From an uncultured Pseudomonadales bacterium (GTDB lineage Bacteria > Patescibacteriota > Microgenomatia > UBA1400 > PJMF01): a stretch of 39,912 nt of DNA. Shown here piece by piece: positions 1 to 39,714 of this stretch (position 1 is the stretch's first letter; each line of letters begins with the position of its first letter). Under the pieces are notes generated by a model, which was given only the letters and a program-made list of their open reading frames with translations, searched no databases and had not been told where the DNA came from. The stretch is taken from NCBI GenBank assembly GCA_964393205.1, contig CAYMSV010000004.1, forward strand, positions 1 to 39,912. Direction: 5' to 3'. The translations under genes were made by a program, and so were the position numbers.

Positions 1-1
1 T

Positions 2-268
2 ATTTCTCAATTTTCCACTGCTTTGGCCAATGAAGTTGGATTGTCTGCAGACTTTGCTAATTTTAATCTTTCTCATGGTCAACAAACTTCAGGTCATGCT
101 GTTACTTTAATTCAAAACATGGATGGCAGCTTAGGTGTAATTGACGCTACTAACAACATGTTCAATCAAGATGTAGGTGCTTATATTAATCAAATTATTG
201 ATTCGGGCTATATTCCAACGAGCAATATCGAAGGAGCAATGCAGGGCTTGATATATCAAATTCCTTAA
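2..268 (+). CDS. C-terminal fragment of an unknown protein (gene begins upstream of the window)
   Basis: The frame is open from base 2 to TAA at 266-268. The TTG 'start' at 23 in the ORF track is probably internal. No motif recognised. Confidence 0.4.
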   Translation: MSQFSTALANEVGLSADFANFNLSHGQQTSGHAVTLIQNMDGSLGVIDATNNMFNQDVGAYINQIIDSGYIPTSNIEGAMQGLIYQIP

Positions 269-324
269 TTAATATTATTTTTGATTAAATTTATAAAAAA
301 GGAAATTTATTATTTAGAAAAGCA

Positions 325-921
325 CTACTCAGATTTTGTAGTTAAATGTTCAGTAAAATTTAACATTTTTAAAACAGGTTTGTTATCTGAAACAATTTTA
401 TTGATCGCACAATTCATCATTTGAAAGTCGTTTCCCTCTTGATAAGCAATTTTAATGGATGATAATCTTTCGTCGCCAAACATGTTTCTTAAATAATCTA
501 AAATTGCTCCACCGTGGGTGACAAATACAATATGATTTTGGTCTTTGGAAACTTTATTTACCAGTTGATGAATTCTTTCACCCGTAGCTCGTGAGGAATC
601 TCCATATTTTGGAACATACTCTCTATTATTTGTTGACTTAATCCATTCTCGTATAAATTCTTGCCTAGTGATTTTTGGATCGCTCCAAATCATGCGCTCA
701 ATCAAAGCCTTATCAAGACTGTATTTTAAATTTAACACTTTGGCTATTTGCTGAGCTGTTTCAACAGTGCGCTTCAATGGACTAGAAATGATTTTATTAA
801 TAGGAAATTGTTTTAAATATTCACCAGTTTCTTTAGCTTGGTTAAAGCCAATTTTAGTTAAACCAGGATCACCAGCATGGATTTGTTTTTGACCGTGGCG
901 AATGAGATAAAGCTTAGTCAT
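325..921 (-). CDS. histidine phosphatase family protein (phosphoglycerate-mutase-like)
   Basis: N-terminal LYLIRHGQ (RHG catalytic motif) and C-terminal VTHGG, as expected for the histidine phosphatase superfamily. 198 aa. Confidence 0.8.
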   Translation of the reverse strand: MTKLYLIRHGQKQIHAGDPGLTKIGFNQAKETGEYLKQFPINKIISSPLKRTVETAQQIAKVLNLKYSLDKALIERMIWSDPKITRQEFIREWIKSTNNREYVPKYGDSSRATGERIHQLVNKVSKDQNHIVFVTHGGAILDYLRNMFGDERLSSIKIAYQEGNDFQMMNCAINKIVSDNKPVLKMLNFTEHLTTKSE

Positions 922-1330
922 CTTCTAAATTTTCAAACCTTCCATCTTGGTATGGTGGAAAACAAATTTCAAAGACCACTAAATTATCATCAGCTTGCCA
1001 CTGCATGATATCTCCGACTTCAACTACCTGGGCAAAGCCTTCAGAGTTTTGATTAACTTCAAATATTATTTTTTTTCCACTAGGTTTTTGAATGCATAGT
1101 CTACCCGTACCAGAAATATAACCCTCTATTGTTTGATCGCCGCTAAGAACTCGTTGCGGTTTAGTTTTTTTACCAGCTTCGATATAAATAACTCCCAGAT
1201 CTCTTTCTTTTGTTTCTGGATGAAAATAAACATCACATACCACTCCAGGAAAAACCTCTGAAGACTCAATAAACTTTACAGTTAAAGTTTCATTTTCATA
1301 TGTGAATGATTCAATTTTATTTTTACTCAT
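914..1330 (-). CDS. small beta-rich protein, possibly cupin-like
   Basis: 138-aa ORF whose 3' end overlaps the downstream phosphatase gene start by 8 nt (operon). The cupin call rests only on size and beta-strand-like sequence character. Confidence 0.4.
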   Translation of the reverse strand: MSKNKIESFTYENETLTVKFIESSEVFPGVVCDVYFHPETKERDLGVIYIEAGKKTKPQRVLSGDQTIEGYISGTGRLCIQKPSGKKIIFEVNQNSEGFAQVVEVGDIMQWQADDNLVVFEICFPPYQDGRFENLEDD

Positions 1331-1437
1331 TGTAAGATTTTGTAAGATTCTAAATCTCTTCCTTGATTTATCTGCCTCATTTTTTCTAAAAATTCAGATT
1401 TTATGATTGGGGCAGATTATAAAATAAAAACCCCAAT

Positions 1438-1908
1438 TTATATAATAAACCCGCCATGACAATAAAGTCGACAAACAATTTTGCCATTTTTCGATATTTC
1501 CTCAATGCCAGTAAAATTTGCTAAATCACCAGTAGTTTTAAATTCATATTTCCACTCTCCATTGATAAATTCTTTTGGACCACGTACAGGAATATTGTCA
1601 CCAGATCCAGACATCAAAGCTGGTCTTAAAATTGAATCAAATAATTTTTCACTAATTTTATTACTAATAGTAAAACCATAATAATTCATACCCCAAACTG
1701 CTTTTTTATTTTGGTAGATTACTTCTTCACCAATAAATTTAGTTGCGCCAAAAAAAGTATCATGGAACTCTAAGTTGCCTTTTTGAAAATGATAGTCTTT
1801 CGAACCAGGGCGGAGTGAAGCAACCTGCTTAACACCTTCATTAGCGTAGGTATTTTGATTAGCTTGGCGCAGGAAAGAGTCGACAATAGAAATTAAAGAA
1901 TTTGACAT
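1438..1908 (-). CDS. conserved hypothetical protein (DUF5680-like by recollection)
   Basis: ORF-track frame. I moved the start to the ATG at 1906-1908 (MSNSLISIV...) because the longer start lies inside the intergenic 22-bp repeat. The WGMNYYG and C-terminal CHGG pattern recalls DUF5680. Not verified. Confidence 0.5.
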   Translation of the reverse strand: MSNSLISIVDSFLRQANQNTYANEGVKQVASLRPGSKDYHFQKGNLEFHDTFFGATKFIGEEVIYQNKKAVWGMNYYGFTISNKISEKLFDSILRPALMSGSGDNIPVRGPKEFINGEWKYEFKTTGDLANFTGIEEISKNGKIVCRLYCHGGFII

Positions 1909-1928
1909 ATTGCAATTATAATCTAAAG

Positions 1929-1950
1929 GGCGGAGCATGTGGGTCTGGAA
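1929..1950. repeat. 22-bp direct repeat copy 1 (GGCGGAGCATGTGGGTCTGGAA), resembles a tRNA 3' end on the minus strand
   Basis: Identical 22-mer at 4213-4234. The minus-strand reading is TTCCAGA-CCCAC-ATGCTCC-G, a T-loop/T-stem/acceptor/discriminator layout. Confidence 0.85.
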
Positions 1951-2003
1951 GCCATATATCCCATAGCTAAATGCACCTTTCTTGAGTTAATTATATCCAA
2001 AAT

Positions 2004-2018
2004 GGGACAAATGGGACA
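2004..2018. repeat. GGGACAAATGGGACA motif copy 1 (internal GGGACA x2)
   Basis: Identical 15-mer at 4298-4312. It lies 53 nt downstream of the 22-bp repeat here and 63 nt downstream in copy 2. Confidence 0.8.
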
Positions 2019-2093
2019 GTGCAGAAATGGTAGTCTTAGTGACCATATTTACTAATTTTGTGGAGAACGTGAAATAGAAATGTTTGTTGTTTC

Positions 2094-2122
2094 TTGAATA
2101 ATTGTCATAATTATGCTATCAT
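2094..2122 (+). promoter_or_regulatory. candidate sigma70-like promoter for the XRE-led cassette
   Basis: TTGAAT (2094-2099), 17-nt spacer, TATCAT (2117-2122), 10 nt upstream of the ATG at 2132. Pattern match only. Confidence 0.3.
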
Positions 2123-2131
2123 AATAATGAT

Positions 2132-2356
2132 ATGATAAAAATGAAAATATCCATTTCAGAAAAAGCGATTGGCAAAAACATTAAAAGAATGAGAAACAAA
2201 CTTAATTTGTCTCAAGAAGAATTAGCCATTAAAGCAGGAGTTAAGTATTCGAACCTAGTTAAAATTGAAAATTCAGTAATAGGTAAGCCAACGGTATATA
2301 CCGTTTACCGTATTGCAAAGGCATTGGATACAACTGTAGAGAAGTTAATCGAATAA
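2132..2356 (+). CDS. XRE-family helix-turn-helix transcriptional regulator
   Basis: 74 aa. The stretch LNLSQEELAIKAGVKYSNLVKIENS is a typical HTH_3 pattern. Confidence 0.8.
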   Translation: MIKMKISISEKAIGKNIKRMRNKLNLSQEELAIKAGVKYSNLVKIENSVIGKPTVYTVYRIAKALDTTVEKLIE

Positions 2357-2376
2357 TAAGTAGTAGAAAGGAATTT

Positions 2377-2661
2377 ATGGAATTATTAAATCCATACGTA
2401 AAAAAAGCTGAAGCTGAAGTTGAAAAGCTGTCAGCAGAGTATCAAAAGCTTAAAGCAAAAGTAAAGTCAGAAGCTGCTGATGTTCAAATTGAAACTGAAC
2501 AAAGAAAAAAGCAGGAAGAACTTGAACAAACATTGCAGAAAGCAAAAGAAGAACTTAAATCATTAAAGGAATCAACTAAAGACACCTTTGATGATATTAA
2601 GATGAAATATGAAATAACTATGGAAAAAGTTAGATCAAATTTTCAACAACTTAGTGAGTAA
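2377..2661 (+). CDS. small coiled-coil protein, unknown function
   Basis: 94 aa, K/E/Q-rich with heptad-like character throughout (AEAEVEKLSAEYQKLKAKVK...). GGAA-rich SD-like sequence upstream. Confidence 0.55.
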   Translation: MELLNPYVKKAEAEVEKLSAEYQKLKAKVKSEAADVQIETEQRKKQEELEQTLQKAKEELKSLKESTKDTFDDIKMKYEITMEKVRSNFQQLSE

Positions 2662-2683
2662 ATAAAAACTAGATTGGGATATT

Positions 2684-3010
2684 ATGATAATAATTAAATT
2701 TCAGGCACTCAATAATTACGAAAAAAGGAAAACTGATAAAGAAGAAGCAGTTAAATTATTGGAAGATTTACAATCAACATATCCAGCTCTATATAAAGAT
2801 GAGGAGGTAGTTTTTGACGTTAAAGTAGATCAAGATCCACACACACTGTATAAAATAGTTACTTTTAATGCATTTATACCAGATCATGGAAAAATATTTG
2901 CTGAGGCTAAAGCGACTACCTTTTTACAAGCACTTTCAAAGATCAAAACAGATCTTTACAGACATAGTCGAAAGGAGACATATGATGAACCAAGTTCCTC
3001 AAAAAAATAA
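2684..3010 (+). CDS. divergent HPF/RaiA (ribosome hibernation factor, S30AE)-like protein
   Basis: 108 aa. The element order matches my recollection of the HPF/YfiA beta-alpha-beta-beta-beta-alpha layout: IKFQALNNYE, helix AVKLLEDLQSTYP, strands EVVFDVKVD / YKIVTFNAFIP / KIFAEAKA, then helix TFLQALSKIKTDLYRHSRKE. Not verified by search. Confidence 0.45.
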   Translation: MIIIKFQALNNYEKRKTDKEEAVKLLEDLQSTYPALYKDEEVVFDVKVDQDPHTLYKIVTFNAFIPDHGKIFAEAKATTFLQALSKIKTDLYRHSRKETYDEPSSSKK

Positions 3011-4154
3011 CAAAGCAGTTGCTGATTTTTTAGCTAGCATTAGTTTTGATCCTAGTCTATGGTTCATATCAATAGCTGTTAACCAGAATATGTCATCTGG
3101 AGATTTACTTCGAATCATTCGCTCGCAACTTCCTGCAAAATTAGAAGAGCATGAGCTTCATACTAAACTTAAGCATCAACTCAGAAAAATGATTAAATAT
3201 ATCCATAACTTTACTCGTCAAGCCCAGGAAGAGGCGAAAAAAGCTGGTAATGATGTTTTTCTTAGTTTTGCTTTTAGAGAAGATGTGCTTGGTGGAGCTG
3301 CTCGAGATAATACAGCAGAATTGTTGCAACAGCGATCCTTTCCTGTAGGAAAAGTGATTGAAACACAACTTACTGTTGCTCATATCCCAGATCTAACTTA
3401 TGTCTATCAGTCAGGCAAAAATGTTTTGAAAGAAGATACTATTACTGTCACCATAGATCCCGAACAACTAATTTGCTATTCAGGAAAAGAAGTTTCTTTA
3501 GAGAAAGTCATTTGGAAAGAAAAAAATATTTTTTCAAAACCAGAAGATGATGAATATATTGAAGTAGTAAATATGTCTACTCAAAATAAAGCCATTCATA
3601 GTACTGGAAGTGAAAAAGTAGAGCGAACTTTTCAAAGTGGTTTGCTTTTATTTGTGAAAAATGAACTTGAAAGAATTGAAAAACAACTTAATCCTCAAGT
3701 TGTTTACTTATATTTTTCACAGTCATATGAGCCTTTAAGAAAAAAAATTGACGCACTGATTGAGAAAAGTATAGCTAGCAAAAAAATCCATCTCGAATAT
3801 ATTTCAAGCGATCAATTTAGGCATGTAGATGCTAATTTAATTAAGCCATCTTTTGGCATGATTAAAGAATTGTCAAAAATTAAAAATAATAAAAGTGCTA
3901 CAAGCAACTTACACGAAATATGTAAATTGATTCGACAAGGCAATCTAGACACTCTTTATTTATCCTCTGAGCTAAATCAATCCGGGTATATTACTCCAAG
4001 TGCTAACTGTTACACCTATCCAGTAAAGGATTCAAAGAAAGTAGATTCAATTAGACCGTGGCTAATTAAGTCAGCTCTAAATATTTCTGCAAAACTTATA
4101 ATCTTGAACACTCAGGATATAGGTAGTGAAGTGCTTGCAATTCCAAGGTATTAG
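2982..4154 (+). CDS. eRF1/Pelota-like (baeRF-type) protein
   Basis: Start set at ATG 2982 (MMNQVPQ...), preceded by AAGGAG at 2972-2977. The ORF-track start at 2868 would overlap most of the HPF-like gene. The C-terminus, GNLDTLYLSS...SAKLIILNTQDIGSEVLAIPRY, resembles the eRF1/Pelota domain-3 signature (GAVETLLIS ... GAKV.IIS....G..L...GGIAAILRY). Confidence 0.45.
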   Translation: MMNQVPQKNNKAVADFLASISFDPSLWFISIAVNQNMSSGDLLRIIRSQLPAKLEEHELHTKLKHQLRKMIKYIHNFTRQAQEEAKKAGNDVFLSFAFREDVLGGAARDNTAELLQQRSFPVGKVIETQLTVAHIPDLTYVYQSGKNVLKEDTITVTIDPEQLICYSGKEVSLEKVIWKEKNIFSKPEDDEYIEVVNMSTQNKAIHSTGSEKVERTFQSGLLLFVKNELERIEKQLNPQVVYLYFSQSYEPLRKKIDALIEKSIASKKIHLEYISSDQFRHVDANLIKPSFGMIKELSKIKNNKSATSNLHEICKLIRQGNLDTLYLSSELNQSGYITPSANCYTYPVKDSKKVDSIRPWLIKSALNISAKLIILNTQDIGSEVLAIPRY

Positions 4155-4186
4155 GTTCAATAGGTTCAAATAGTATGCGCAAAAAA

Positions 4187-4209
4187 ATAGGCATAAAGCC
4201 TATTTTTTT
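4187..4209 (+). terminator. candidate rho-independent terminator, bidirectional in form
   Basis: ATAGGC-ATAAA-GCCTAT hairpin, flanked by an A-run upstream and TTTTTT at 4204-4209. The stem is short. Confidence 0.4.
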
Positions 4210-4212
4210 CTT

Positions 4213-4234
4213 GGCGGAGCATGTGGGTCTGGAA
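4213..4234. repeat. 22-bp direct repeat copy 2; the minus-strand reading ends ...ATGCTCC-G-CCA
   Basis: Identical to 1929-1950. The flanking TT gives a CCA-A end in the tRNA orientation. Confidence 0.85.
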
Positions 4235-4297
4235 CCAGTGTGTCGTTATAACTGTCTTATTCCAGAATCGAGCTTCCAGGGTAATTTTAGCAAAAAC

Positions 4298-4312
4298 GGG
4301 ACAAATGGGACA
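4298..4312. repeat. GGGACAAATGGGACA motif copy 2
   Basis: Identical to 2004-2018. Confidence 0.8.
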
Positions 4313-4359
4313 CTATAAAAAAGGAGTGTCTTGTTTTAGTAGTGATATATTTTGATATA

Positions 4360-5268
4360 TTAATTATCAAACTCTCTCCACTGATTAGCTTTGGCTTCGG
4401 CCACAGACATTGCTCCCAGGCTTATTCTTTTTTTGAGGTCCTCAAGATAACAAAAATCAGGTGAATTACTAATCTTGAGTTTATTAAAAATAACTTTAGC
4501 AATAGAATATTCGAATAAGTGTATTGATATTACTGTCCTATCTTTCTCAAATTCAGGATAAATTAGATGAAATGCTTGTGGTTTTGGTGATAAAAGCAAC
4601 TCAACCTTTATAAGGTTCTGACCATTCAATATTGAGTTTCTAATTCCATTAAATGCATCATCGTATATAGTTCTCCCTAGAAGTAAAGCCAGATATTCGT
4701 AAGCAATTAGGACCATAGCATTAGGTTCCGCAATGGTGTTTTTTGTAAAGTCAGGTTTAAATTTATCTCCATCCCACCTTACAATGGACAAGCCTTTATA
4801 AATCTGCACTTTTTTCCCATTGGGAGTTTCATTTATTTTAGATGCCAATGTCTTTGCAGTTTCAGGATTTAATCCGTGTTCTTGAACTAACTTCTTTTCC
4901 ATAAAACTAACGGCATGCACTGTTGGCAATACAGCTTCACTGCTATCAGTTATTGGTCTTATATGTATTCCAGAGTTAGTTCTTTCAGCTTGTAAGACAG
5001 TTCCAATAGGGCTTTGTGTTGTATATTTCTGTCGCTTTTCTATAGAGTCGAAAATCTTAGGCAGATCATCTTTCAACTTCCAAGCAGCCTGTCTGACCCA
5101 GCTATCAAATTTTATTGAGGAATAAAGCTTCGATCCAATTCCGTGGTTGCATTCTGCACACAAGAGTTGGTGATTCAACCTTCCTCCTAAAAAATCTGGA
5201 ATTACATGTTCAGGTGGTGTCGAGTCATCTAATGCTTTTAAGCAAAGAATACATTTATCAAATTTCAT
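4360..5268 (-). CDS. HNH endonuclease-domain protein with an unknown C-terminal domain
   Basis: N-terminus CILCLK...PEHVIPDFLGGRLNHQLLCAECNHG gives CxxC ... EH ... N ... CxxCNH, a zinc-bound HNH beta-beta-alpha-Me motif. Its start overlaps the upstream gene's stop by 4 nt. Confidence 0.7.
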   Translation of the reverse strand: MKFDKCILCLKALDDSTPPEHVIPDFLGGRLNHQLLCAECNHGIGSKLYSSIKFDSWVRQAAWKLKDDLPKIFDSIEKRQKYTTQSPIGTVLQAERTNSGIHIRPITDSSEAVLPTVHAVSFMEKKLVQEHGLNPETAKTLASKINETPNGKKVQIYKGLSIVRWDGDKFKPDFTKNTIAEPNAMVLIAYEYLALLLGRTIYDDAFNGIRNSILNGQNLIKVELLLSPKPQAFHLIYPEFEKDRTVISIHLFEYSIAKVIFNKLKISNSPDFCYLEDLKKRISLGAMSVAEAKANQWREFDN

Positions 5269-6149: not shown

Positions 6150-6989
6150 CTAATTTTTTAGCATGTCTTTTGAAAACTTTTCAAATTGTACAAAATCTTC
6201 CTTTTTGTAAAGCTTGTATTCCTTAGCAAAAAAGCGCAGTAATACGAAATAGATTTGGTAAGTAATAGAAACAATTCTTTCCACATCTTCTGGAGAGCCA
6301 TCAGTCATTAATCGCTGTTGCCCATTTGAGTCAGTGACAAAGAATCTATTTAGACCTGAGCTATTAAGATGAGCTATCTGTGAAAAAAACTTGTAATATA
6401 GAACATAATATTTCTCTAAACTTTTTCTCTCAGAGAGTTTTTTCTTCTTTTTTAAATATTCGTCAAAAATAATTGCTCTACCTCTAATATCAGGAATCTG
6501 CTTTGGAATCTTATACTTATATCTTTTTGATATTTTCTGTATTTCCAATTCTTTTTCATTTATAAACTGATCCCAATCACTAGGAGACTTAATATGTCCA
6601 AAGGTTAAATTCCATTTCGGATATTTATTCCAAAAACTTCTATGTTTTTCAGCAAAATCTATTTGCTCTTGTATAGAGTCTATAATAAATATAAATGCAT
6701 TTCTTTGAGTTCTTCCAGAGTATATATAGTTAATATTAATAAATGTTTCAACAAGTGATCTGAACAAAACCTCTGAGGCCTTATCAAAATACGGTTCACT
6801 TCTTAATAATTTAAAAATACTTTCACTATAACTTTGAGAAGCGCATACAACTAGGAAAAGCAGTTGTTTTTTAAATCTTACCTTAGTGAAATTAAGCTCT
6901 GTACTACTTAATAAAGTTGAGCCAAATTTAAGTATTTCTCCGAATTGGTTAACAAGATTTTGTTGCTTTGCATTGAATTTATTAGTCAC
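6150..6989 (-). CDS. all-helical protein, AbiV/DUF5677-like (recollection)
   Basis: 279 aa. The stretches LFRSLVETFININYIY and FFSQIAHLNSSGL resemble conserved patches of DUF5677/AbiV-type proteins as I remember them. Gaps to the neighbouring genes are 6 and 9 nt. Confidence 0.35.
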   Translation of the reverse strand: MTNKFNAKQQNLVNQFGEILKFGSTLLSSTELNFTKVRFKKQLLFLVVCASQSYSESIFKLLRSEPYFDKASEVLFRSLVETFININYIYSGRTQRNAFIFIIDSIQEQIDFAEKHRSFWNKYPKWNLTFGHIKSPSDWDQFINEKELEIQKISKRYKYKIPKQIPDIRGRAIIFDEYLKKKKKLSERKSLEKYYVLYYKFFSQIAHLNSSGLNRFFVTDSNGQQRLMTDGSPEDVERIVSITYQIYFVLLRFFAKEYKLYKKEDFVQFEKFSKDMLKN

Positions 6990-6998
6990 AACTTACTT

Positions 6999-7925
6999 TC
7001 ATGCCCGATAATTCTCTAGTAAATCAAGGACTTCTTGGGCTAATAATCCAATATTTTCAATAGTTTCACTTACTTTCTCTTTTTTTAACTTATATTTTCT
7101 TCCATATTTACCTGAGTATTCGGGAACCTTTTTTATAAAATCATCATCAATAACACCCGCATTATGAGTTTGTATGTGTCTCACTTGAAACATTTCTTTA
7201 ATATGTTGTGATTTCTCCAGTCCAACAAAATCAGCAATATTCTTGTGAAACTTATCCTTGAGCGTTGCTTCTAATAACAGGATGTTTTGAAAAAGATTTC
7301 TAGATCTGCTTGGAAAAATTGTTGGATATTTTTTCATTAATGATTTACCAAAAGCATCAAAGCTCGAGACCGATTGTTCTAGAGCATCTGAAATAAGATC
7401 CTCACTTATTTCAGATGCTTCTGGGGTTTCAGAAAGTTTTATTCTCTTTTCGCAAGATTCTAAAGACCTTTTTAGAATTATAAGTGAATTCAACTTTCCA
7501 CAATCAGGGCAATTTGAAAAAACACCATATATAGAGAAAACTAATCCACAGTTATCGCAGGTTACATGTGTTTCGAGTATTTTCTCTTGGTAAGATTTTA
7601 TTGGAAACGATACATCATTTGTTTTAACTTTAATTTTAATAAATTTTGAAGACGACCTTTCAAGATTTTTAAAACTTTTATTCAAATCATGAATTGCAGG
7701 TTCTATAAATTCCTTCGAAAGTAAACTTACGATGTAATCATTCTGTTCTTGAGTAAAAAAATCATTTGAACTGGCCTTATAGCCACAATATGGGCAGATA
7801 TGATCGCTTGTAGACAATCCTGTTCCGAACTTAACGCTAAAATACTCTAGGCATGTTGGACATTGCCTTCCAACAAGCCCATTTTCATCAGTTGGTATTG
7901 AGATCTTCATCTGAGTTGTATGCAT
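6999..7925 (-). CDS. double zinc-ribbon protein with a C-terminal HEPN-like R-x4-H motif
   Basis: CPTC...CPYC and CDNC...CPDC pairs in the N-terminal half. FQVRHIQTHNAG (R-H-I-Q-T-H = Rx4H) lies in a helical C-terminal domain. Confidence 0.5.
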   Translation of the reverse strand: MHTTQMKISIPTDENGLVGRQCPTCLEYFSVKFGTGLSTSDHICPYCGYKASSNDFFTQEQNDYIVSLLSKEFIEPAIHDLNKSFKNLERSSSKFIKIKVKTNDVSFPIKSYQEKILETHVTCDNCGLVFSIYGVFSNCPDCGKLNSLIILKRSLESCEKRIKLSETPEASEISEDLISDALEQSVSSFDAFGKSLMKKYPTIFPSRSRNLFQNILLLEATLKDKFHKNIADFVGLEKSQHIKEMFQVRHIQTHNAGVIDDDFIKKVPEYSGKYGRKYKLKKEKVSETIENIGLLAQEVLDLLENYRA

Positions 7926-9633: not shown

Positions 9634-11478
9634 ATGAAATCAAAGGAAAAACACACCGATAAAAAAGAAAAATCCTCTTTGAGAAAAAGAATAACTCTCA
9701 AATCACTTACAACATTTTTTGGAGTAACTTGGATTTTAACAATACTTATCTTCTTGGCCTTCCTAGTGGTGGGTACAAACTTTTTTCAAACAACAGTGGA
9801 TAAAGGACCGCTACAGAGTGATATCTGGGTTGTTATCTTACTCGTTGATATTCTGGGCGGGATTGGATCATTTTTACTTTTTAGCATGTTTTTAACAGCA
9901 CTGGCGATGAAAAATAAAAAGAATGAGAAAAAGAAAACATCTTTGGCTAAGAAACTTATTTCTTTCCTATTATTCTTTGTATATTTAGCTGTTCTTCCAA
10001 TTTATTTACTTAATAAAATCTGGAAACCAAAACAGCTAATTTCATTTTTCAAAGATGCAAAGAAAAATTTTAGTAAGAAAAACGCAGTCTCTTTTGGAAA
10101 AAAAATACTTGCTTCACTTCCTATCCTCGCATTTTTATTTCCTGTATGGATTATTGGTTATTTCTCAGTTGGAGCGATAACAGCAGACAGCTTGGGTTTA
10201 GTGCCGTATCAAATGGATATTGTTGGGACTGGATCTATGTATCCAACATTCCCAAAAGGAGAAGGTCGTGACCCAAAAGAATTAGCTCAACAAGTAGTCG
10301 GCCGACAAGATATGTTTAATTATCCCAATGGTCTTCAACTTGGAGGAAAAAGATATTTCAGTCATACCATTGCTCGAGGAGATATTATTACAGTAGAGGA
10401 TGAGAAAACAAGGAAAGCTACTGAAGAAGTATACGGAGATCCATCTGGTTGGTTGAAACGCGTAATTGCTGTTGCTGGAGACACTTTAGAGATCAGGGAT
10501 GGTATCGTGTATCTCAATGGTGAGGCTCAAAAAGAACCATATGTTGCTAAAGCAAGATCTACGTTTGGACAATCTTTCTTAGAAGAATGCAAACAGGTAA
10601 CCGTTCCTGAAAACTCAGTCTTTGTAATGGGCGATAACAGAACCGGAAGTCGCGATTCAAGAGATGTTGGCTTTTTTAACATCGATGATATTAAATCCGT
10701 ATACCCATTTGATAAACAATTGAAGTCCCTAACTCAAAATTGGCATGACATCACAAATGACCTTGAAGAGTCTTCACGCATCAAACTTGATAAAGAAAAA
10801 TATTTGGAAGAACTGAACAAAAAACGAGAAGAAGAAGGATTGAAGCCACTTACATACAATGAGAAGTTAGAACAATCAGCTCAAAAAAGAGGTGAAGTAA
10901 TTTTGAAATACAATGATTTTTCATTTGAAGCAACTGCTAGTGCTTACACAATGGAAAAAGCTATTCATGAAGTTGGTTATTACAACACTTTTTGGGGTGA
11001 AGCTCCATCTAATGGTTACTATGAATCTGATGAGCTCCTAGAAAACCAACTTGAATTTCCTGAGTCGAAGGACTTTATTTTTGATAAAAGATTTCAAGAA
11101 ATTGGTATCGCTGAAGTCAGCGGTGAAACAAATGGATGCCCATCACATGTGATCGTGCAACACTTTGGCGGGTACGTTCCACCCAACTATTCAGCGTCTG
11201 ATATACAATCCTGGGAAGAAGCACTGTCTTCTTTAAGAAATATTCAACCAAGTTGGAATGACTTGAAAAATTCTGGAGACTATTACAACCGACATAAAGA
11301 TAAGATAGATAGAATTACTTATATTATTGATTTACGCATTAACAAAATTACGGACATTGTTGGTACTATGAGAGCGAAGAAGTGGTTTTCGGCAGACCAA
11401 AGAGCATTTGTTGAATCTGGTGATATGGCCTTGTATAGGGAACAAGAAGAATTAGCTACATTTCTAAATAGTCAATGA
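9634..11478 (+). CDS. lepB: signal peptidase I (S26) fused to an N-terminal polytopic membrane region and a C-terminal CAP/SCP-like region
   Basis: GTGSMYPTF (catalytic Ser), KRVIAVAGD (catalytic Lys box) and VMGDNRTGSRDSR (box E). About five hydrophobic helices in the first 190 aa. The C-terminal LKPLTYNEKLEQSAQKRG...WGEA...IGIAEV pattern is like YkwD/CAP domains. Confidence 0.8.
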   Translation: MKSKEKHTDKKEKSSLRKRITLKSLTTFFGVTWILTILIFLAFLVVGTNFFQTTVDKGPLQSDIWVVILLVDILGGIGSFLLFSMFLTALAMKNKKNEKKKTSLAKKLISFLLFFVYLAVLPIYLLNKIWKPKQLISFFKDAKKNFSKKNAVSFGKKILASLPILAFLFPVWIIGYFSVGAITADSLGLVPYQMDIVGTGSMYPTFPKGEGRDPKELAQQVVGRQDMFNYPNGLQLGGKRYFSHTIARGDIITVEDEKTRKATEEVYGDPSGWLKRVIAVAGDTLEIRDGIVYLNGEAQKEPYVAKARSTFGQSFLEECKQVTVPENSVFVMGDNRTGSRDSRDVGFFNIDDIKSVYPFDKQLKSLTQNWHDITNDLEESSRIKLDKEKYLEELNKKREEEGLKPLTYNEKLEQSAQKRGEVILKYNDFSFEATASAYTMEKAIHEVGYYNTFWGEAPSNGYYESDELLENQLEFPESKDFIFDKRFQEIGIAEVSGETNGCPSHVIVQHFGGYVPPNYSASDIQSWEEALSSLRNIQPSWNDLKNSGDYYNRHKDKIDRITYIIDLRINKITDIVGTMRAKKWFSADQRAFVESGDMALYREQEELATFLNSQ

Positions 11479-12893
11479 AACTTACAAAATCACTTTTCAT
11501 CGAATACTTAGATTCACCACTCCACATGTGGCTGAAAGCACACAGTGAAGTGACTCCTAAAGCACCCTCAGTCTATGACCAACACATCATGAAACAAGGT
11601 TATGAAATTGAAAAACTTGCCAAGGTATTTTTGGAGAAAAAAGTGGCTCGTGAGTATCCAGCTGGCACCACCATTTCCTTTGAAGAAACGTTGACTGATG
11701 GTAATTACCAGTCACGTATTGATGCTTTGGTACACGACACTACTAATAACACCTATGACTTATACGAAATAAAAAGTAGCACTACTATCCATACTGAACA
11801 CAAGTATGACGTGACTTTCCAGCATTTAATTGCGAAAGCAAGTTTGCCAGTACATAAAACGTACTTAGTGCGTGTGAATAGTGATTATCGACGTGAAGGC
11901 GAGATCGATCTCAATCAGCTATTTATCATCGAAGACATGGAGCATGAGATTGCTAAAAGGGAGGACGAGGTTTATGAGCTTCGTTCAGATGCTTGGTCAA
12001 CTTTGCGATTAGAAATAATGCCAGTTGATGAGCATTGTCTCAACCCAAGCACTTGCTCATATCCTGCAATCTGTTTCCCAAATTTGCCTGACTATCCGAT
12101 TTACGACTTGAGTCGAGGGAGTAAGAATCAGTATCGAGAATTGATTGACCTCGGTATTCAGTCAGTTAAAGACATTCCTGATACCTGCAAATTGACCTCA
12201 AAGCAAAAAATGCAAATTCAGTCTGCTCGTAGTAGTCAGCCAATTATTAAACACGACGCTATTAAAAAACAACTTGATAGCTTGGAATACCCACTCTATT
12301 TCCTAGACTATGAAACCTATGCAGAAGCTTTGCCTATGCATGACCACTATGGACCATATCAACAAATCACCACTCAGTTTTCCATTCATGTCGCAGAGTC
12401 TCCAGAAAGTAAGGATTTTAAGCATTATGAATTTCTTGCACGGGAGAAAAATGATCCAGCTTCAGAATTAGCAAAAGCACTCTGTAATGTGATTGGTGAG
12501 ACTGGCACCATTATTGTTTGGAATAAAGGCTTTGAGTGTGGCAGGATTGAAGAGTTGGCGGTACTTGTACCAGAATATGCAGAACAACTAGCAAGTATTA
12601 ATAAACGAACTTTTGATTTAATGGAAGTTTTTTCTAAGGGGTTGTATGTTGATTTCCAATTTCATGGGAGTGCTTCAATCAAAAAAGTATTACCTATCTT
12701 AGCTCCTGAGCTGAGTTATAAAACTCTAGAGATTGGCGAAGGTGCTACAGCCATGATCAAATGGCATGAGATGGTGTATGGCGATATAACAGATGAGGAA
12801 CGAGATACTATTGCAAATAATTTATTGACGTATTGCAAATTAGATACATGGGCAATGGTGGAGATTTGGCGAAAACTAAGAGAATTGATGTAG
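11475..12893 (+). CDS. DUF2779-like protein (PD-(D/E)xK plus RNase-H-like exonuclease halves)
   Basis: LTKSLFIEYLDSPLHMWL at the N-terminus, DALVHD...YDLYEIKSST, and YPLYFLDYETY...PYQQITTQFSIH. ATGA overlap with lepB. Confidence 0.65.
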   Translation: MKLTKSLFIEYLDSPLHMWLKAHSEVTPKAPSVYDQHIMKQGYEIEKLAKVFLEKKVAREYPAGTTISFEETLTDGNYQSRIDALVHDTTNNTYDLYEIKSSTTIHTEHKYDVTFQHLIAKASLPVHKTYLVRVNSDYRREGEIDLNQLFIIEDMEHEIAKREDEVYELRSDAWSTLRLEIMPVDEHCLNPSTCSYPAICFPNLPDYPIYDLSRGSKNQYRELIDLGIQSVKDIPDTCKLTSKQKMQIQSARSSQPIIKHDAIKKQLDSLEYPLYFLDYETYAEALPMHDHYGPYQQITTQFSIHVAESPESKDFKHYEFLAREKNDPASELAKALCNVIGETGTIIVWNKGFECGRIEELAVLVPEYAEQLASINKRTFDLMEVFSKGLYVDFQFHGSASIKKVLPILAPELSYKTLEIGEGATAMIKWHEMVYGDITDEERDTIANNLLTYCKLDTWAMVEIWRKLRELM

Positions 12894-13979: not shown

Positions 13980-14789
13980 TTAGTTACTTTCAAGTTCTTT
14001 CACCTGCATAAACTTAACTTCCTGTTCATAGATTGGCACAAACTGATTGTCTTTTAACACAAATCTTGTTCTCAGTACTCCAGTAGAGCAACATCTAGCG
14101 GAATCATCAAAAAGTCTTTGCTCAACATAAAAACCGTTATTTGTATCAGCTGAAATGATGGTTGCATCATCACCATTTGCTGAAAAAATAATCTTATTAT
14201 CTTTCACAATATCAGCACTAGTTGAGCCGCCGTCTGCACGGCAGTTGTAATTTTTGTGAACAATTGCTTCGTCTTTGTTGTCTCCATCAACATCAAAGTA
14301 ATCAATTTTATAAATTTCTTGATCAGGTAAAGTATAGGTAGTAAATGGACCATGTTCTTGATAGTTTTCTCTAGCTGTTTGCACCGGCCAATCCAAGTCA
14401 CAATCTTTTTTAAGTAGTCCAAGAGCTTCCTCTAAAGGTAAAGCCTCCAGATCTCTAACAGAGCTATCATAATCAGTGAGGGTAATTTCAGAAGTAGGAT
14501 ATGACTGATACACAGCAGTGTTATTAAGCGCTAACTGACTAAATTGTCTAATATCACCTTCTTCAAATTCTTTATAGTGATCTGCAGAACCCCAACGGAT
14601 ATCATCGTAATTAAAATAGGTAACATCTAGGGGCAGTGGCTGAAAACTATCTCCTGTGGTTTCTGAAGCAACCTCGGTGTTAGCTGTTTCAGTTTGACTG
14701 AGTACTTCTTGAGTTTTTGGAGCAGTAAAACGTCCAAGAATAAATGAGAGAAAGATAAGAGAGATAATTGTTATGATCTTTCTATTCAT
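13980..14789 (-). CDS. secreted or membrane-anchored protein with an FG-GAP/VCBS-like DxDxDG motif
   Basis: N-terminal signal/anchor IITIISLIFLSFILGRF and the motif YFDVDGDNKDEAIV. Its ATG overlaps the methyltransferase TGA (ATGA at 14786-14789). Confidence 0.6.
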   Translation of the reverse strand: MNRKIITIISLIFLSFILGRFTAPKTQEVLSQTETANTEVASETTGDSFQPLPLDVTYFNYDDIRWGSADHYKEFEEGDIRQFSQLALNNTAVYQSYPTSEITLTDYDSSVRDLEALPLEEALGLLKKDCDLDWPVQTARENYQEHGPFTTYTLPDQEIYKIDYFDVDGDNKDEAIVHKNYNCRADGGSTSADIVKDNKIIFSANGDDATIISADTNNGFYVEQRLFDDSARCCSTGVLRTRFVLKDNQFVPIYEQEVKFMQVKELESN

Positions 14790-17700
14790 TTATTTGCAAT
14801 TTCTACTAACTTAATTTCCTCATCTGTTAATTCATACAATCTATAAACCATTTGGTTGATCTTTTTTTCTAAGTTCACCTGCTCGATGGGTGGGTTTTGA
14901 GGATCATAATTATCAGCAGATGTGATGGACAATATTTGATTAGTCAAATCAATGAAAGGTTGTTGATTAGATTTTGAAATTACCTTTATAGGAATTTCTG
15001 ATAATGGTCTCTTATATAGCTCAAGAGTATCGCCTTTTCTCTTGCCTCTGTTATATAGCCAAAAATAAATTAATTTAGAGTTTAATACAGATAACAAATA
15101 AGCAATTTCTAAATCATTTCTTATTGAAGTTATGTAATAAACATCACCAGCGCCAATAAGAGTGCCATCAGTTTTAGCAAATACATTCTTTTTAGAACGA
15201 TATGGACAAACAATATGTTTACCGGTGTCAACCAAGAAACTTCTTTTTGATCCTCTGAGCCAATACCAAGAGTTTTCATCATCATTAACCTGTTCTCTGG
15301 CTTTTAATATTGGACGAAATTTTGAAAGGTAATTTTTTATCCAAGGATAATTTTGAATATTTACTTCAGAGTCAACATATATATAAAACATTTCTTTTTT
15401 CAAAGAAACAAAAAATTTATAAATATCAGAATTCTTAATAAATGGCTTAATTATTTCATTTCTCTCAAACTTAGGAATATTTTCATAAGTTTCAAAATCA
15501 ATAATATATATGTTTGTTCCTATTTTTATATTATTTCTTGATAGATAATCATCAGTCACATATCTATTTTCTAAAGCTCTATTAAGAAGTGCTTTTCCCA
15601 CAACGTCTGCTCCAGACTGAACACCCATGTTTATATAACTAAGTTCACCCAAATCTACGCAGTTAGTTTTTATCTTATTTAATAATTTCGATTTTTTAGA
15701 ATCAGAATTATTTATACCTTCAAATCTGATGTAGTTATTCTCACCATCATATATTTGACCTTGAGATAAAGTTAAATATTTAGTTTCATCGTTTTTATTG
15801 TGAATTATCTCTGTTAATAAGTTTTCGCTAGCAGTGCCTTTTTTATTTGTGATAATTATTTTTGCATGGCAATTTTTATCTATTCTCTTTTCAAAAATTG
15901 TGATCATATTATGTTGACCAAGAGCAGATTTAAATATTCTAAGTTCATTAAAATTAATTAGATTTCTAATGACAGATCTATTCTTTAGATCTGATCGGAG
16001 TTTTTTGGCTCCATCAGCTGTGACAAAATAATTAGTTGTAATAAAAGCATTTTGAGATTCATCTCTACCAATATTTAACGCCAAATGAAAGAAAAAATAA
16101 AAAAGATCCATTTTTCTTTGGTAAAATGACTTGAGATTTCCATTGCTGATTTCTCTAAAGATTTTTTTATTTCCTTTTTCTCCAACATAAGGCGGATTGC
16201 CAATAACTATATCGAAACCGCCTTTTTCTTTAAATACATCACTGAATTCAAGCTTCCAAATGAAAAATGGCTTAATATTCTTATGTCTAAGTTTAACAAG
16301 ATTATTGAGCTCTTTAACTTTCTTCTGCTCTTTGAATGATTCCTCAATAATTTCCCATTTCAAGTTATCTATATCTTCTTTTAGTGTTTGTTTCTTTGTC
16401 TTCTGTGACTCATCCACATACTGACTTATTTTATTTTGCAAATCTTCAAGCTTCAGTTCTGAATTTGATTTTCCAAAGCCAAATGGTAATTGCTCTGGCT
16501 TGGAATCTTCTGTTTTTCCAAATATTCCTTCATCGAATAATTTGATACCTTCATATTCTGAAATCAAACTATTTCCTTGCATTATTTTGTGATCAAGGTT
16601 GGGCAGCGGGCTTGGAGTAGACTCTTCTACAATAAGAGTTAGCCATAAACGAAGTTTGGCGATCTCTACTGCACCAGGATCAATATCAACTCCATGAATT
16701 GAATTAGAGATAGCATGTTTTTTAAGTTGGTAGTCAGTGAGTCTTTTATCTAAATAAATGTTTAAGATTTTTCTGGCTCTGACGATTTCATTAATCATTC
16801 CTAATGGAAAAGCTCCAGAACCAACTGCTGGATCGGCAACCTTGATGTTCATTAGAAGCTCGTCCAACTCACTTGCTTTCTTTATAATAGATTCTGCTAA
16901 TAAAAGCTCATACTTGCCAGTATATTTATACCCTCGTTTTTGCTTTTCTCTAATTTTCTTTAAGGCTACACTGTCATTTTCAATAATTCTATCTCCTGTA
17001 TAGATAAAACTTTCAATGTCTTTTCTTTCAATCCCTTCAGTCTCAGATTCCAAATAATTGATCAGGCACTCTTGGCACATGTAATGCACAATTTCTCTAG
17101 GGGTATAGAATGCACCTTTGCTTTTTCTGTCTCTGACTTGAAGTAAGTTTTCAAAAACCTTACCAAGCATTTCTGGATCAACAGCAACTTCTTTTTCTAG
17201 GGGTTCATTTTCATTAACAGTAAAGTTGTATCTATCAAAAACGTCTAAAATACCATTGCCTTTATCTCCATTTTTCGTGGGAATATTATTGGAGAATACT
17301 TCATCAGGTATGTTGATATTAGTTGTTTCCCATGCATAATCGTTCATTGGCTCAAACAAACCACCGTTTAAAAATGGCATCTTACAGTTATTGAGTTTTG
17401 GATAAAATGAATTTTTACCTCTGTCTTGAGCTAGAGCCTCATAAAATAGTGGCTCTAATACATCATTGAAAAAGTTTTTACCATATTTTGATCTTCTCTC
17501 AAAGAGCTCTCTTAAAAAGTTTTTAGGCCCATCTCCCCAGGATTTATCTGGAGCAACTCCAAACCAGCCCTTCTTTTGAAGAAAATAAAGAAAGACAATT
17601 TGGCCCATTGTTTTCTTTGCAAAATCAACAGTATCAATTTCTTTAGAATTAAACTCATTTTTAATACTTTCATCATCTGAAATTATTTTTTCTAAATTCT

Positions 17701-18319
17701 CCTTGAAAATCAAGAAAAGTTCCTTGTACTTCTCAAAAAACTCGTTGGTTACTACTTCAATATCAAATGCAGATTCGAATTCTTCTAAGTTTGGTTTTTG
17801 ATTACTTACTAGAAGATTAACAAATCTACTCTGTGCAGTATGTGTTCCTTCGTTTCTCCCAACCAGAAAAGACCATCTTTTAGCTGGTGTAATTTCTTCT
17901 TTTGTAGATATCTTATTATTTTTAACTTCTAGAGAGTGTTCAAGTTTTATAAGTGAAAAGCGCCAATCATTTTTACTTTGAGGAATAAACGCAACCAATG
18001 CCGCTAGTTTATTATTAGATTTCAAATAGTCTGCAACGAAATTTCTTTGGGCAGTTCTAGCTCTGTCTAATGATTTATCATTTGTTAAATTTACTTCTAG
18101 GATATCTATCTTCTGTGATTTATCATCTTCGAAATGACCAAGGACTTTATAGTTATCAATAAATGACTTGAAAGAATCTTTTACATACGTGTTGTCAACA
18201 TTTTTGTTAACCCTTGTAAAATCTTTTAACAAATTACTAATAAAGAGCTGAAATTTATTATCATTAAACTCTGTACTAAAAACTTCGTTGATTATTCTTT
18301 TAGCATCACTTTGTTTCAT
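14786..18319 (-). CDS. Eco57I/YeeA-type N6-adenine DNA methyltransferase with a TaqI-like C-terminal specificity domain
   Basis: Motif I is VADPAVGSGAFPLG. HGVDIDPGAVEIAKLRLWL is present. Motif IV is VIGNPPYVGEKG. The C-terminal LSVLNSKLIYFWLYNRGKRKGDTLELYKRPLSEIPI is TRD-like. 1177 aa. Confidence 0.85.
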   Translation of the reverse strand: MKQSDAKRIINEVFSTEFNDNKFQLFISNLLKDFTRVNKNVDNTYVKDSFKSFIDNYKVLGHFEDDKSQKIDILEVNLTNDKSLDRARTAQRNFVADYLKSNNKLAALVAFIPQSKNDWRFSLIKLEHSLEVKNNKISTKEEITPAKRWSFLVGRNEGTHTAQSRFVNLLVSNQKPNLEEFESAFDIEVVTNEFFEKYKELFLIFKENLEKIISDDESIKNEFNSKEIDTVDFAKKTMGQIVFLYFLQKKGWFGVAPDKSWGDGPKNFLRELFERRSKYGKNFFNDVLEPLFYEALAQDRGKNSFYPKLNNCKMPFLNGGLFEPMNDYAWETTNINIPDEVFSNNIPTKNGDKGNGILDVFDRYNFTVNENEPLEKEVAVDPEMLGKVFENLLQVRDRKSKGAFYTPREIVHYMCQECLINYLESETEGIERKDIESFIYTGDRIIENDSVALKKIREKQKRGYKYTGKYELLLAESIIKKASELDELLMNIKVADPAVGSGAFPLGMINEIVRARKILNIYLDKRLTDYQLKKHAISNSIHGVDIDPGAVEIAKLRLWLTLIVEESTPSPLPNLDHKIMQGNSLISEYEGIKLFDEGIFGKTEDSKPEQLPFGFGKSNSELKLEDLQNKISQYVDESQKTKKQTLKEDIDNLKWEIIEESFKEQKKVKELNNLVKLRHKNIKPFFIWKLEFSDVFKEKGGFDIVIGNPPYVGEKGNKKIFREISNGNLKSFYQRKMDLFYFFFHLALNIGRDESQNAFITTNYFVTADGAKKLRSDLKNRSVIRNLINFNELRIFKSALGQHNMITIFEKRIDKNCHAKIIITNKKGTASENLLTEIIHNKNDETKYLTLSQGQIYDGENNYIRFEGINNSDSKKSKLLNKIKTNCVDLGELSYINMGVQSGADVVGKALLNRALENRYVTDDYLSRNNIKIGTNIYIIDFETYENIPKFERNEIIKPFIKNSDIYKFFVSLKKEMFYIYVDSEVNIQNYPWIKNYLSKFRPILKAREQVNDDENSWYWLRGSKRSFLVDTGKHIVCPYRSKKNVFAKTDGTLIGAGDVYYITSIRNDLEIAYLLSVLNSKLIYFWLYNRGKRKGDTLELYKRPLSEIPIKVISKSNQQPFIDLTNQILSITSADNYDPQNPPIEQVNLEKKINQMVYRLYELTDEEIKLVEIANK

Positions 18320-21300: not shown

Positions 21301-21509
21301 AGATCGTATGTTTGCTTATTGGTACTGATTCCGATTAAGATTCTTATCTTTTCAGTTTTTTCGAGCTGAGGGTATATGGCGTAAAAACCACTGGTATAAA
21401 AATAACCAACTAAAATATCGAATAAACGAGTATCTTTGACCAAAACATTAAATCTACTTTTTAGGTTTTCACCATTTTCATTAGTAATAAATGTTAAGTC
21501 TGTACTCAT
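18324..21509 (-). CDS. PLD (HKD) nuclease domain fused to an SNF2-family helicase
   Basis: The N-terminus has one HKD motif, HSKLYIM...GSSNFTQSGL. Helicase motifs are DVVGLGKTYM (I), VLIDESHRFR (II), LVTATPYNN (III), TDVLSEGANL and QRVGRINR (V/VI). 1061 aa, 4 nt upstream of the methyltransferase. Confidence 0.85.
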   Translation of the reverse strand: MSTDLTFITNENGENLKSRFNVLVKDTRLFDILVGYFYTSGFYAIYPQLEKTEKIRILIGISTNKQTYDLLQVSKSYKEIGDDIGESIKNEMDESENNHEVETGAHKFLEWLKSGKLEVRAYPEEKIHSKLYIMTFDEDDRDLGRVITGSSNFTQSGLVDNLEFNVELKNPSDYKFALNKFNELWENGIDVSEKYIETIEKDTWIREDITPYELYLKFLYEYFREEINEEENLSHNYRPDNFKELKYQDHAVINAKKIVDEYGGVFLSDVVGLGKTYMGTMLCQELAGRILVLAPPHLIDENNEGSWKNSFKNFGFRSKDYRCESIGMLDKIIDKDLHKEYDIVLIDESHRFRTEETETYAKLAQICRGKKVILVTATPYNNSPKDLLSQIKLFQRSKQSTIPNLPNLEGFFKVLDKKLKDLDRKKDKQQYIDVTKENSKLIREKVLKYLMVRRTRTEIVKYYGDDLQNQKMSFPKIADPAPIFYEFSKEEDAVFFETLKIITNDFKYSRYTPLLYYKGITNQEKHQQKNMMKFMKMLLIKRLESSFYAFNKTIDRFISSYERFIETYEDGSVYVSRSHIQKIFDYLDEGNLEAIDKLVEDNKAEKFETKDFTEKFINNLQEDLEILRNIKKLWANISRDPKILAFKEKLSLEEPVKSGKSIIFTESKETAEYLLKNLQDIFPDQIIYFSGGSSLAEREIVMENFDANSRVIKNDYKVLITTDVLSEGANLHQANVVINYDIPWNPTKIMQRVGRINRVDTKHKEIYTYTLFPTEQSNEQIKLKELAEAKIQAFITLLGADAKLLTDDEIPEGHSLFSRMLSKEMIEGEDQNEESDLGYLQEIRDIRDNDPKLFAKIKRLPKKARTARKSQNSKTELLTYFRKGKIQKFFIVENSSSTDAREIDFIEAAKTLHANASEKRMTIDELFYQLLEKNLLMLNQVEDYEENEFSTKRGSRDNAARLFKILNAKQVKNYEKFTEDDEEYVRRVIVELNSGGIPKKVTQKIYQELSQNIEIINNPIKILGILKTTLPSEFLEDSDNGINMNVSAKKEIILSEYFKGK

Positions 21510-27197: not shown

Positions 27198-27254
27198 CTG
27201 CGGCTAGACTTCCCACCAGATCGCGGTACCTTGTGTCCTAAGAAAGGAAACAAG

Positions 27255-29120: not shown

Positions 29121-29214
29121 TAAACTGAAAAATGTTTAAAATTGGAAAATTTAGCAAGCCCCATCAACCCATTTGACTATATTAGACGGGTCTCCCAGAA
29201 CTTTTCGGTTGTTG

Positions 29215-29299
29215 CGGAAGCGGTGGGATTCGAACCCACGAAACCCAAAAGGGTTCAGGTTTAGCAAACCTGTGCAATTGGCCACTATGCGACGCTTCC
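29215..29299 (-). tRNA. tRNA-Ser (anticodon GCU), type II with a long variable arm
   Basis: Manual cloverleaf: acceptor GGAAGCG/CGCTTCC, D-arm GCA/TGC, anticodon stem CAGGT/ACCTG with loop TTGCTAA, 16-nt variable arm (ACCC-TTTT-GGGT), T-arm GTGGG-TTCGAAT-CCCAC, discriminator G. CCA is not encoded. Confidence 0.9.
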
Positions 29300-29386
29300 T
29301 TATTAAATAGCAAACTCACCAACTCATCAGAAACCCTTGCATTATAACAAAGTTGTTTTTAATTTAATAGCAATTCTCTCTAGAAA

Positions 29387-29809: not shown

Positions 29810-30020
29810 ATGAGTCTTTCAAAAGTATTTTTTAGTATTTCAAATAATTTAAATAAAAAGAAGACTAGATCATTATAACAAAGATATTTTACATTCAGCT
29901 TAATAAAAAAAGATTTTTGTGCTATAATCGGCCTCAAGTTAATCTATTTTAATTGTGCAATTTGTGAATTAAATAGATCAATTTTAAAAAATAATTGTAA
30001 TTCTGCCAGCAAAGGGATTT

Positions 30021-39709: not shown

Positions 39710-39714
39710 AATTT

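Follow-up and report, generated by a model that had tools for sequence, protein, structure and literature searches.

The stretch analysed here, which we refer to as the window, comprises the 39,912 nucleotides (nt) at positions 1 to 39,912 of contig CAYMSV010000004.1 (forward strand; assembly GCA_964393205.1), and our subject is a pair of overlapping plus-strand genes at 2684–4154 that probably encodes a ribosome-hibernation module of the known HPF/RaiA and Balon type. Gene A (2684–3010, +) is an open reading frame (ORF) for a 108-residue protein that resembles short HPF/RaiA proteins and has no C-terminal dimerization domain. Gene B (2982–4154, +) encodes a divergent Balon-like protein of 390 residues, from the baeRF-1 group of the aeRF1 superfamily, that is predicted to be non-catalytic. 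The frame of gene B is a long ORF extending from 2868 to 4154 with candidate ATG start codons at 2982 and 2985; the first of these gives an overlap of 29 nt with gene A, the stop codon of which ends at 3010, and the second is the start used in the public gene call of an identical protein, giving a product of 389 residues. An AAGGAG ribosome-binding site for gene B, read from the sequence, lies inside gene A at 2972–2977 (+), with a spacing of 4 nt to the ATG at 2982 and of 7 nt to that at 2985. A first-pass annotation, made by a model from the sequence alone, had described an overlapping pair in which the second gene has its own AAGGAG and had suggested that it was a ribosome-targeting module; every element of the arrangement that it described is present.

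Upstream of the pair lie two further plus-strand genes, one encoding a 74-residue XRE-family helix–turn–helix (HTH) regulator (2132–2356, +; PF01381, E 7e-13) and the other a 94-residue coiled-coil protein (2377–2661, +) that is a member of the sll1863 family of stress-response proteins, its match to the NCBIfam model NF052504 being above the family cutoff (44.1 bits, cutoff 35, E 1.8e-11). The four genes are flanked by direct repeats at 1929–2030 and 4213–4324, and the first-pass description of a repeat-bracketed cassette, in which the pair follows an XRE regulator and a coiled-coil protein, was therefore accurate. Preceding the XRE gene, a consensus scan found a promoter-like site (TTGAAT-17-TATCAT with TG; 2094–2138, +), which is overlapped by inverted repeats at 2105–2115/2120–2130 and 2111–2122/2127–2138; judged from these consensus matches, 2094–2138 is a putative promoter and XRE operator. 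Gene B is followed by a terminator-like hairpin (4181–4209, +) with a 12-bp stem, a 5-nt loop and a T-run, for which RNA folding gave −12.9 kcal/mol (z −2.5). This hairpin was not called in a consensus terminator scan, and the sole match in an Rfam search was a tRNA-Ser gene.

The host appears to be a Patescibacteria bacterium of Microgenomates-like affiliation. An SHMT gene on the overlapping contig L013, located approximately 3.6 kb beyond the left end of the window, is 97% identical to that of one metagenome-assembled genome (MAG), and the next matches are to MAGs labelled as Woesebacteria and Paceibacterota (85–88%), followed by many MAGs of the Microgenomates group.

Gene A and the HPF/RaiA fold

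The gene A family used for modelling comprised 14 members, the window protein included, drawn from 5.8 billion clustered proteins, and the resulting AlphaFold2 model had a mean pLDDT of 86.4 and a pTM of 0.75. Its elements follow the order β1-α1-β2-β3-β4-α2, with strands at residues 2–8, 42–50, 57–65 and 69–77, helices at 16–32 and 80–100 and a one-turn helix (34–37) after the first of these, and the protein consists of one domain and a disordered tail of approximately 8 residues. The strand and helix order of ribosome hibernation factors, which the first-pass annotation had read from the sequence of the 108-residue protein, is thus reproduced by the model. When the model was compared with the PDB using Foldseek, the best 20 matches were exclusively HPF, RaiA/YfiA or plastid pY structures, the majority of them ribosome-bound (probability 1.00, TM-score 0.53–0.82, root mean square deviation 1.8–4.1 Å), and unrelated folds ranked below all 20. 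The gene A product confidently models as an HPF/RaiA-fold protein and, because it is a single domain of 108 residues, resembles the short HPF/RaiA type rather than the dimerizing long HPF.

Signals of the same relationship recur in the sequences of the family. PF02482 was its commonest Pfam match, found in 6 of 16 members with a best E of 0.0039, in all cases below threshold. When the family was aligned by hhalign with the Pfam-recognized HPF of a remote locus, L103, the two were placed in the correct register (E 4.6e-4, probability 33%), and the family hidden Markov model (HMM) matched this same HPF at E 1.4e-5, a value obtained against a small database made up of the ORFs from the loci examined. 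Helix α2 carries conserved basic residues, K88 being invariant and R93 and R96 nearly so. Searches of PDB sequences with gene A, both as a single sequence and as a profile, gave no significant HPF match. In comparison with short HPF/RaiA proteins (YfiA, pY; PF02482), gene A has in common the β-α-β-β-β-α order, with TM-scores of 0.7–0.8 to the best ribosome-bound structures, a length of approximately 100 residues, the absence of the long-HPF dimerization domain and a basic C-terminal helix; it differs in falling below the Pfam threshold, in sharing just 10–21% identity with solved HPFs, the range seen among its fold matches, and in being located always directly upstream of a Balon-like gene and not in an rpoN/hpf-type locus.

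Gene B and the Balon family

The C-terminus of gene B reads ...GNLDTLYLSS...SAKLIILNTQDIGSEVLAIPRY, and its likeness to the domain-3 signature at the end of archaeal eRF1 and Pelota had been pointed out in the first-pass annotation. This likeness is not a matter of chance, because NF052287, the NCBIfam model of the AOC03_06830-family ribosome hibernation factor (Balon), matches gene B through to the end (E 4.9e-5), residues 261–390 aligning with model positions 228–361 and reaching the model end, and the evidence from profiles is stronger still. Close homologues of gene B amounted to just 8 clusters in 5.8 billion proteins (33–100% identity). A profile of their alignment (A1, 8 sequences) found 110 proteins among 1.84 billion representatives, and 80 remote relatives among these 110 were aligned as A4. 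Comparison of A1 with A4 by hhalign gave 100% probability and E 5e-40 over 377 columns. Within A4, matches to the Balon model were obtained for 41 of the 80 members (best E 1e-20), to the MSMEG_1130 hibernation-factor model for 28 and to the Rv2629 model for 11, and 9 members matched Pfam baeRF_family3 and 7 eRF1_3. Against the PDB, the A4 profile matched Balon chain 8rd8_B (E 3e-7, residues 53–369), archaeal Pelota (E 9e-4) and Msmeg1130 (E 0.02), and hhalign of A4 with 8rd8_B extended over 297 columns (94.7%, E 6e-8). When PDB sequences were searched with gene B itself, as a single sequence or as a profile, no Balon, eRF1 or Pelota match was obtained. These comparisons support the predicted membership of gene B in the bacterial aeRF1-like (baeRF-1/Balon) radiation.

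Neither GGQ nor NIKS was found in any of the 8 members of the gene B subfamily. Where the catalytic loop would align, the sequence is H[GS]TG[SNA][ED]K, which contains no Gln, and GGQ is present somewhere in the sequence of 5 of the 80 A4 members. Conservation across the gene B family is highest in the block GY..P....YTYPVK.SKKV.SIRPWL, which aligns with a segment of the Balon C-domain and matches it in length, the gene B model having a pLDDT below 50 in this region; the EF-Tu-binding hairpin of Balon sits in its C-domain (Helena-Bueno et al., 2024; PMC10901736), and the block might conceivably be the counterpart of this hairpin. A scan of 185,579 species-representative genomes with A1 patterns found no relative of gene B, and the genomes scanned included the MAG that shares 97% SHMT identity with the present host.

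The radiation to which these comparisons point has been described. The baeRF-1 clade was defined by Burroughs & Aravind (2019; PMC6514570), who noted its persistent operonic association with HPF and the loss of the catalytic Gln from most of its families, and who proposed that these proteins are non-catalytic A-site blockers acting together with HPF. Balon has since been seen by cryo-electron microscopy (cryo-EM) in the A site of hibernating ribosomes, where it can co-bind with RaiA; it is without NIKS and GGQ, contacts EF-Tu(GDP) and inhibits translation in vitro, and the genes that encode it adjoin the RaiA gene most frequently (Helena-Bueno et al., 2024; PMC10901736). The first-pass statement that no bacterial eRF1-like protein had been experimentally characterized is consequently outdated, given that Balon, Msmeg1130 and Rv2629 have ribosome cryo-EM structures and inhibit translation in vitro (PMC10901736). 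Its identification of the two genes was nevertheless right, and the pair is an instance of a described, experimentally characterized system.

Gene B resembles Balon (Psychrobacter urativorans AOC03_06830; mycobacterial Msmeg1130 and Rv2629) in its length (approximately 360–400 residues), its aeRF1/Pelota-like fold matches, its ...RY C-terminal end, the absence of GGQ and NIKS and the adjacent HPF/RaiA-type gene in a stress-type operon. It differs in being very divergent (23 bits on the curated Balon model, whose cutoff is 330), in having no recognizable HP motif, in the invariant motifs HGTGSEK and YPVKxSKKVxSIRPWL that belong to its own subfamily and in its Patescibacteria-like host, and binding to the ribosome and to EF-Tu is proposed for gene B by analogy. 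With the baeRF-1 families (Pfam baeRF_family1-12) it shares its nature as a bacterial aeRF1 homologue, the lack of a catalytic Gln and the HPF-linked operon, but Pfam baeRF families are matched neither by the window protein nor by any of its 7 close homologues, whereas 9 of the 80 A4 relatives match family 3. In common with archaeal and eukaryotic aeRF1 and Pelota/Dom34, gene B has the superfamily fold and the C-terminal domain-3 signature, but it is set apart from them by the missing NIKS and GGQ, the bacterial host and the HPF linkage, and nothing points to a function in termination or rescue.

Conserved linkage and proposed function

HMMs of gene A, gene B and the sll1863-like gene were used to scan the contigs of all close gene B homologues and of some remote ones. 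In 10 of 10 distinct subfamily loci, gene B is immediately preceded, on the same strand, by a homologue of gene A, so that the neighbourhood survey proposed in the first-pass annotation found the adjacency of HPF-like and Balon-like genes to be kept throughout. The spacing between the two genes ranges from −29 to +45 nt across all loci and from −1 to +45 nt in loci other than that of the window; the 29-nt overlap is specific to the lineage of the window. Of the 8 distinct loci with a contig that extends far enough upstream, 7 have an sll1863-like gene ahead of the pair (examples are at 2377–2661 in the window, 4698–4982 in L001 and 680–964 in L004). The head gene of the cassette encodes an XRE HTH protein in three lineages (the window, L009 and L010) and ChaB in other loci, and the sll1863-family gene accompanies the pair irrespective of which of these is present. 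We regard the sll1863-family protein as a candidate third partner of the pair. Other neighbours in homologous loci encode DUF305 and DUF1269/YflT proteins, response regulators, a copper ATPase, ArsR-type regulators, SOD and PNPase. Among the remote A4 members, locus L103 has a Balon-like gene directly followed by a Pfam-recognized S30AE/HPF gene, with HSP20 nearby, and L098 is without an HPF-type neighbour. The GC content of all loci is 30–41%.

The folds and homologies of the two proteins as established computationally, the missing GGQ and NIKS motifs and the gene linkage lead us to hypothesize, with a probability that we would put at roughly 70%, that genes A and B form a co-transcribed ribosome-hibernation module of the known HPF/RaiA and Balon type that silences and protects ribosomes. 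Ribosome binding, co-binding of the two proteins, induction under stress and the roles of EF-Tu and of the sll1863-like protein are features of this hypothesis that we infer. In the mechanism that we envisage, one tightly coupled operon, here under an XRE repressor, would co-produce A, B and the sll1863-family stress protein, and in the window A and B would be translationally coupled via their overlap. By analogy with solved HPF complexes, the gene A protein would fill the decoding region and mRNA–tRNA channel of the 30S subunit, excluding mRNA and tRNA, and the gene B protein, by analogy with Balon, would be placed in the A site, extending towards the peptidyl-transferase centre but making no contact with mRNA. 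Because its loop is without Gln, the gene B protein would be expected to release no peptide, and a Balon-like binding mode would allow it to share one ribosome with the HPF-like protein. In times of stress or dormancy, 70S ribosomes would in this way be kept silent and protected, a state that would be reversible on recovery.

A number of observations weigh against this hypothesis. The gene A product is below the gathering score of PF02482, and the window protein itself has no match to this model. None of the curated cutoffs tested for gene B (NCBIfam NF052287/8/9 and the Pfam baeRF families) was reached: it scores 23 bits on NF052287, where the cutoff is 330, its C-terminal third alone aligns, and Pfam gives no baeRF or eRF1 match at E≤1. 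Both proteins remain below curated family thresholds. The link from gene B to Balon is moreover transitive via A4, because hhalign of A1 directly with Balon residues 53–369 is not significant (probability 0.7%, E 0.08). The AlphaFold2 model of gene B, built from 8 sequences, is poor (pLDDT 58, and below 50 for residues 283–390), and although its best 13 PDB matches in Foldseek (E 8e-7 to 3e-3) comprise eRF1, aRF1, Pelota and three Balon homologues, the TM-scores of these matches are only 0.17–0.27. The HP motif, which in the Balon N-domain contacts A1492/A1913, is not recognizable, there being no His-Pro in the first 140 residues of any member, in a comparison in which the alignment with Balon begins at its residue 53. 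Finally, the cassette sits at a mobile-element hotspot and is headed by an XRE regulator, as is also common in conflict systems.

It is this last point that gives rise to the alternative of translation arrest of the conflict or abortive-infection type, in which the XRE protein would restrain the pair and the pair, on phage attack or as a toxin–antitoxin-like addiction module, would shut down the host ribosomes, and the first-pass annotation had itself leaned towards an accessory system for arrest or rescue. The description as accessory is fair, as the cassette is flanked by an att-like relic on one side and a tRNA-Ser gene on the other and no relative of gene B was found in the representative genomes. 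Other features would also suit a conflict system: att-like repeats are present, the tRNA-Ser site carries a 25-kb island (with restriction-modification, PLD-helicase, HNH and PDC-M14A-like genes), the XRE HTH protein encoded by the first gene resembles control proteins and antitoxins (PADLOC generic HTH and control-protein models), the gene B subfamily is rare and patchy, and conflict-driven origins of baeRF-1 have been proposed by Burroughs and Aravind (PMC6514570). However, the lean towards conflict or rescue is weak, as PADLOC models gave no matches for genes A and B, GGQ and NIKS are missing, and the defence island is a separate insertion, contig L015 carrying the cassette alone. Most homologous loci, furthermore, are without an XRE gene, appear to be chromosomal and have stress, metal-homeostasis and two-component neighbours, and the characterized relatives are reversible hibernation factors and not toxins (PMC10901736). 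We therefore consider a conflict function improbable.

More improbable again is active ribosome rescue or release, whereby gene B would release or split stalled ribosomes as aeRF1 or Pelota do, and gene A would have an accessory part. The fold matches of gene B do include eRF1, aRF1 and Pelota, the A4 profile does match Pelota at E 9e-4, and the catalytic Gln is kept in a few baeRF-1 families (PMC6514570), with GGQ occurring somewhere in those 5 of 80 A4 members; but GGQ and NIKS are present in 0 of the 8 subfamily members and the H[GS]TG[SNA][ED]K loop has no Gln, obligate pairing with an HPF-fold protein suits silencing better than rescue, and Balon leaves the peptidyl-transferase centre inert (PMC10901736). 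Least probable of all is that the resemblance is one of fold only, gene A being a βαβββα partner or chaperone of B and the pair acting off the ribosome, for although gene A matches no solved HPF significantly in sequence, shares 10–21% identity with its fold matches, varies in isoelectric point from 4.6 to 9.5 across its family and has a weak match to DUF7355 (E 0.002), its top 20 structural matches are solely of the HPF family, sub-threshold PF02482 matches recur among its relatives, the basic α2 residues are conserved and a true HPF that the family HMM picks up holds the equivalent place beside a related Balon-like gene (L103).

If the hibernation hypothesis is accepted, what is new here is modest: rare, divergent subfamilies of a known pair in a Patescibacteria-like host, with a recurrent sll1863-family partner and an integration hotspot at tRNA-Ser. 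In the part of the supplementary text of the Balon paper that was accessible (PMC10901736), no Patescibacteria or Candidatus entries were found. According to a recent preprint, loss of HPF is common among small-genome bacteria, and HPF genes of non-canonical type are often found beside Balon (bioRxiv 10.1101/2025.11.04.686544); the present locus is consistent with this picture. The locus leaves the known view of how HPF–Balon pairs work unchanged, and would extend the pair to ultra-small, largely uncultivated and probably host-dependent bacteria for which dormancy is probably important. Pfam and NCBIfam models overlook entire subfamilies of both proteins, and surveys of hibernation factors will therefore undercount them. 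The strict coupling of A and B also makes this a clean pair for probing the functional co-dependence of HPF-type and Balon-type factors. A more far-reaching suggestion, which we regard as doubtful, is that the sll1863-like, HPF-like and Balon-like genes constitute a mobile three-component hibernation cassette, XRE-switched in some lineages and spread among Patescibacteria on integrative elements that target tRNA-Ser, with the sll1863-family protein as a third ribosome-associated partner.

Integration site and adjoining island

An insertion of approximately 25.0 kb (4219–29213) is located at the 3′ end of the tRNA-Ser(GCT) gene, with junctions at 4214–4218 and 29214–29218. Contig L015 joins window positions 1–4218 directly to 29214–30899 at 100% identity, with a 5-nt overlap (GCGGA), and the left end of the insertion is also present on contigs L014 and L016; because L015 has the cassette without the island, the defence island is a separate insertion. 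A large serine recombinase gene (27231–28547) lies in the island, adjoining the tRNA gene. The hibernation cassette is thus found between an att-like relic and the tRNA-Ser gene, at a mobile-element hotspot.

The att-like relic is copy 1 of the direct repeat (1929–2030), which matches the left end of the 25-kb island, and copy 2 (4213–4324) spans the left junction of the island at 4218/4219, the sequence from 4219 onwards being the island left end. Between the two copies, 22 nt are identical (1929–1950 and 4213–4234) and a further segment is 79% identical (1988–2030 and 4282–4324), so that the island left end of approximately 110 nt (GGCGGAGCATGTGGGTCTGGAA ... GGGACAAATGGGACA) recurs directly upstream of the cassette. 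The same motif is present in a different lineage, at 2525–2625 of L008, where it lies at an island edge approximately 1.1 kb downstream of the Balon-like gene and beside a large helicase gene. The recurrence of the motif suggests that elements of one family target this site again and again, and the cassette may itself be cargo left over from an earlier integration. Interpretation of the repeats as tRNA genes or fragments was considered, but their alignment to tRNA-Ser showed only partial similarity and they were taken to be att-like island ends. A DUF5680 gene (1438–1938, −) reaches into copy 1, the ATG at 1938 chosen by the gene caller falling within 1929–1950, and its true start is probably at a downstream Met (MSNSLISIV...).

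The cargo of the island between 4360 and 23084 looks like a collection of defence and restriction-modification genes. On the minus strand it includes HNH_5 (4360–5268), DUF5677 (6150–6989), a PDC-M14A-like protein (6999–7925; PADLOC, E 3e-18), an Eco57I/MmeI-type fused methylase (14786–18319) and a PLD-nuclease and helicase protein (18324–21509), and on the plus strand a ParB-N6/N4 methylase (21816–23084). The island also encodes a 614-residue protein (9634–11478) with a signal peptidase S26 domain in its middle only (residues 197–353), which is followed by a DUF2779 protein (11475–12893). At the right end of the window, a T/C-rich stretch of low complexity with overlapping imperfect repeats (39700–39912) probably codes, on the minus strand, for a K/E-rich tail.

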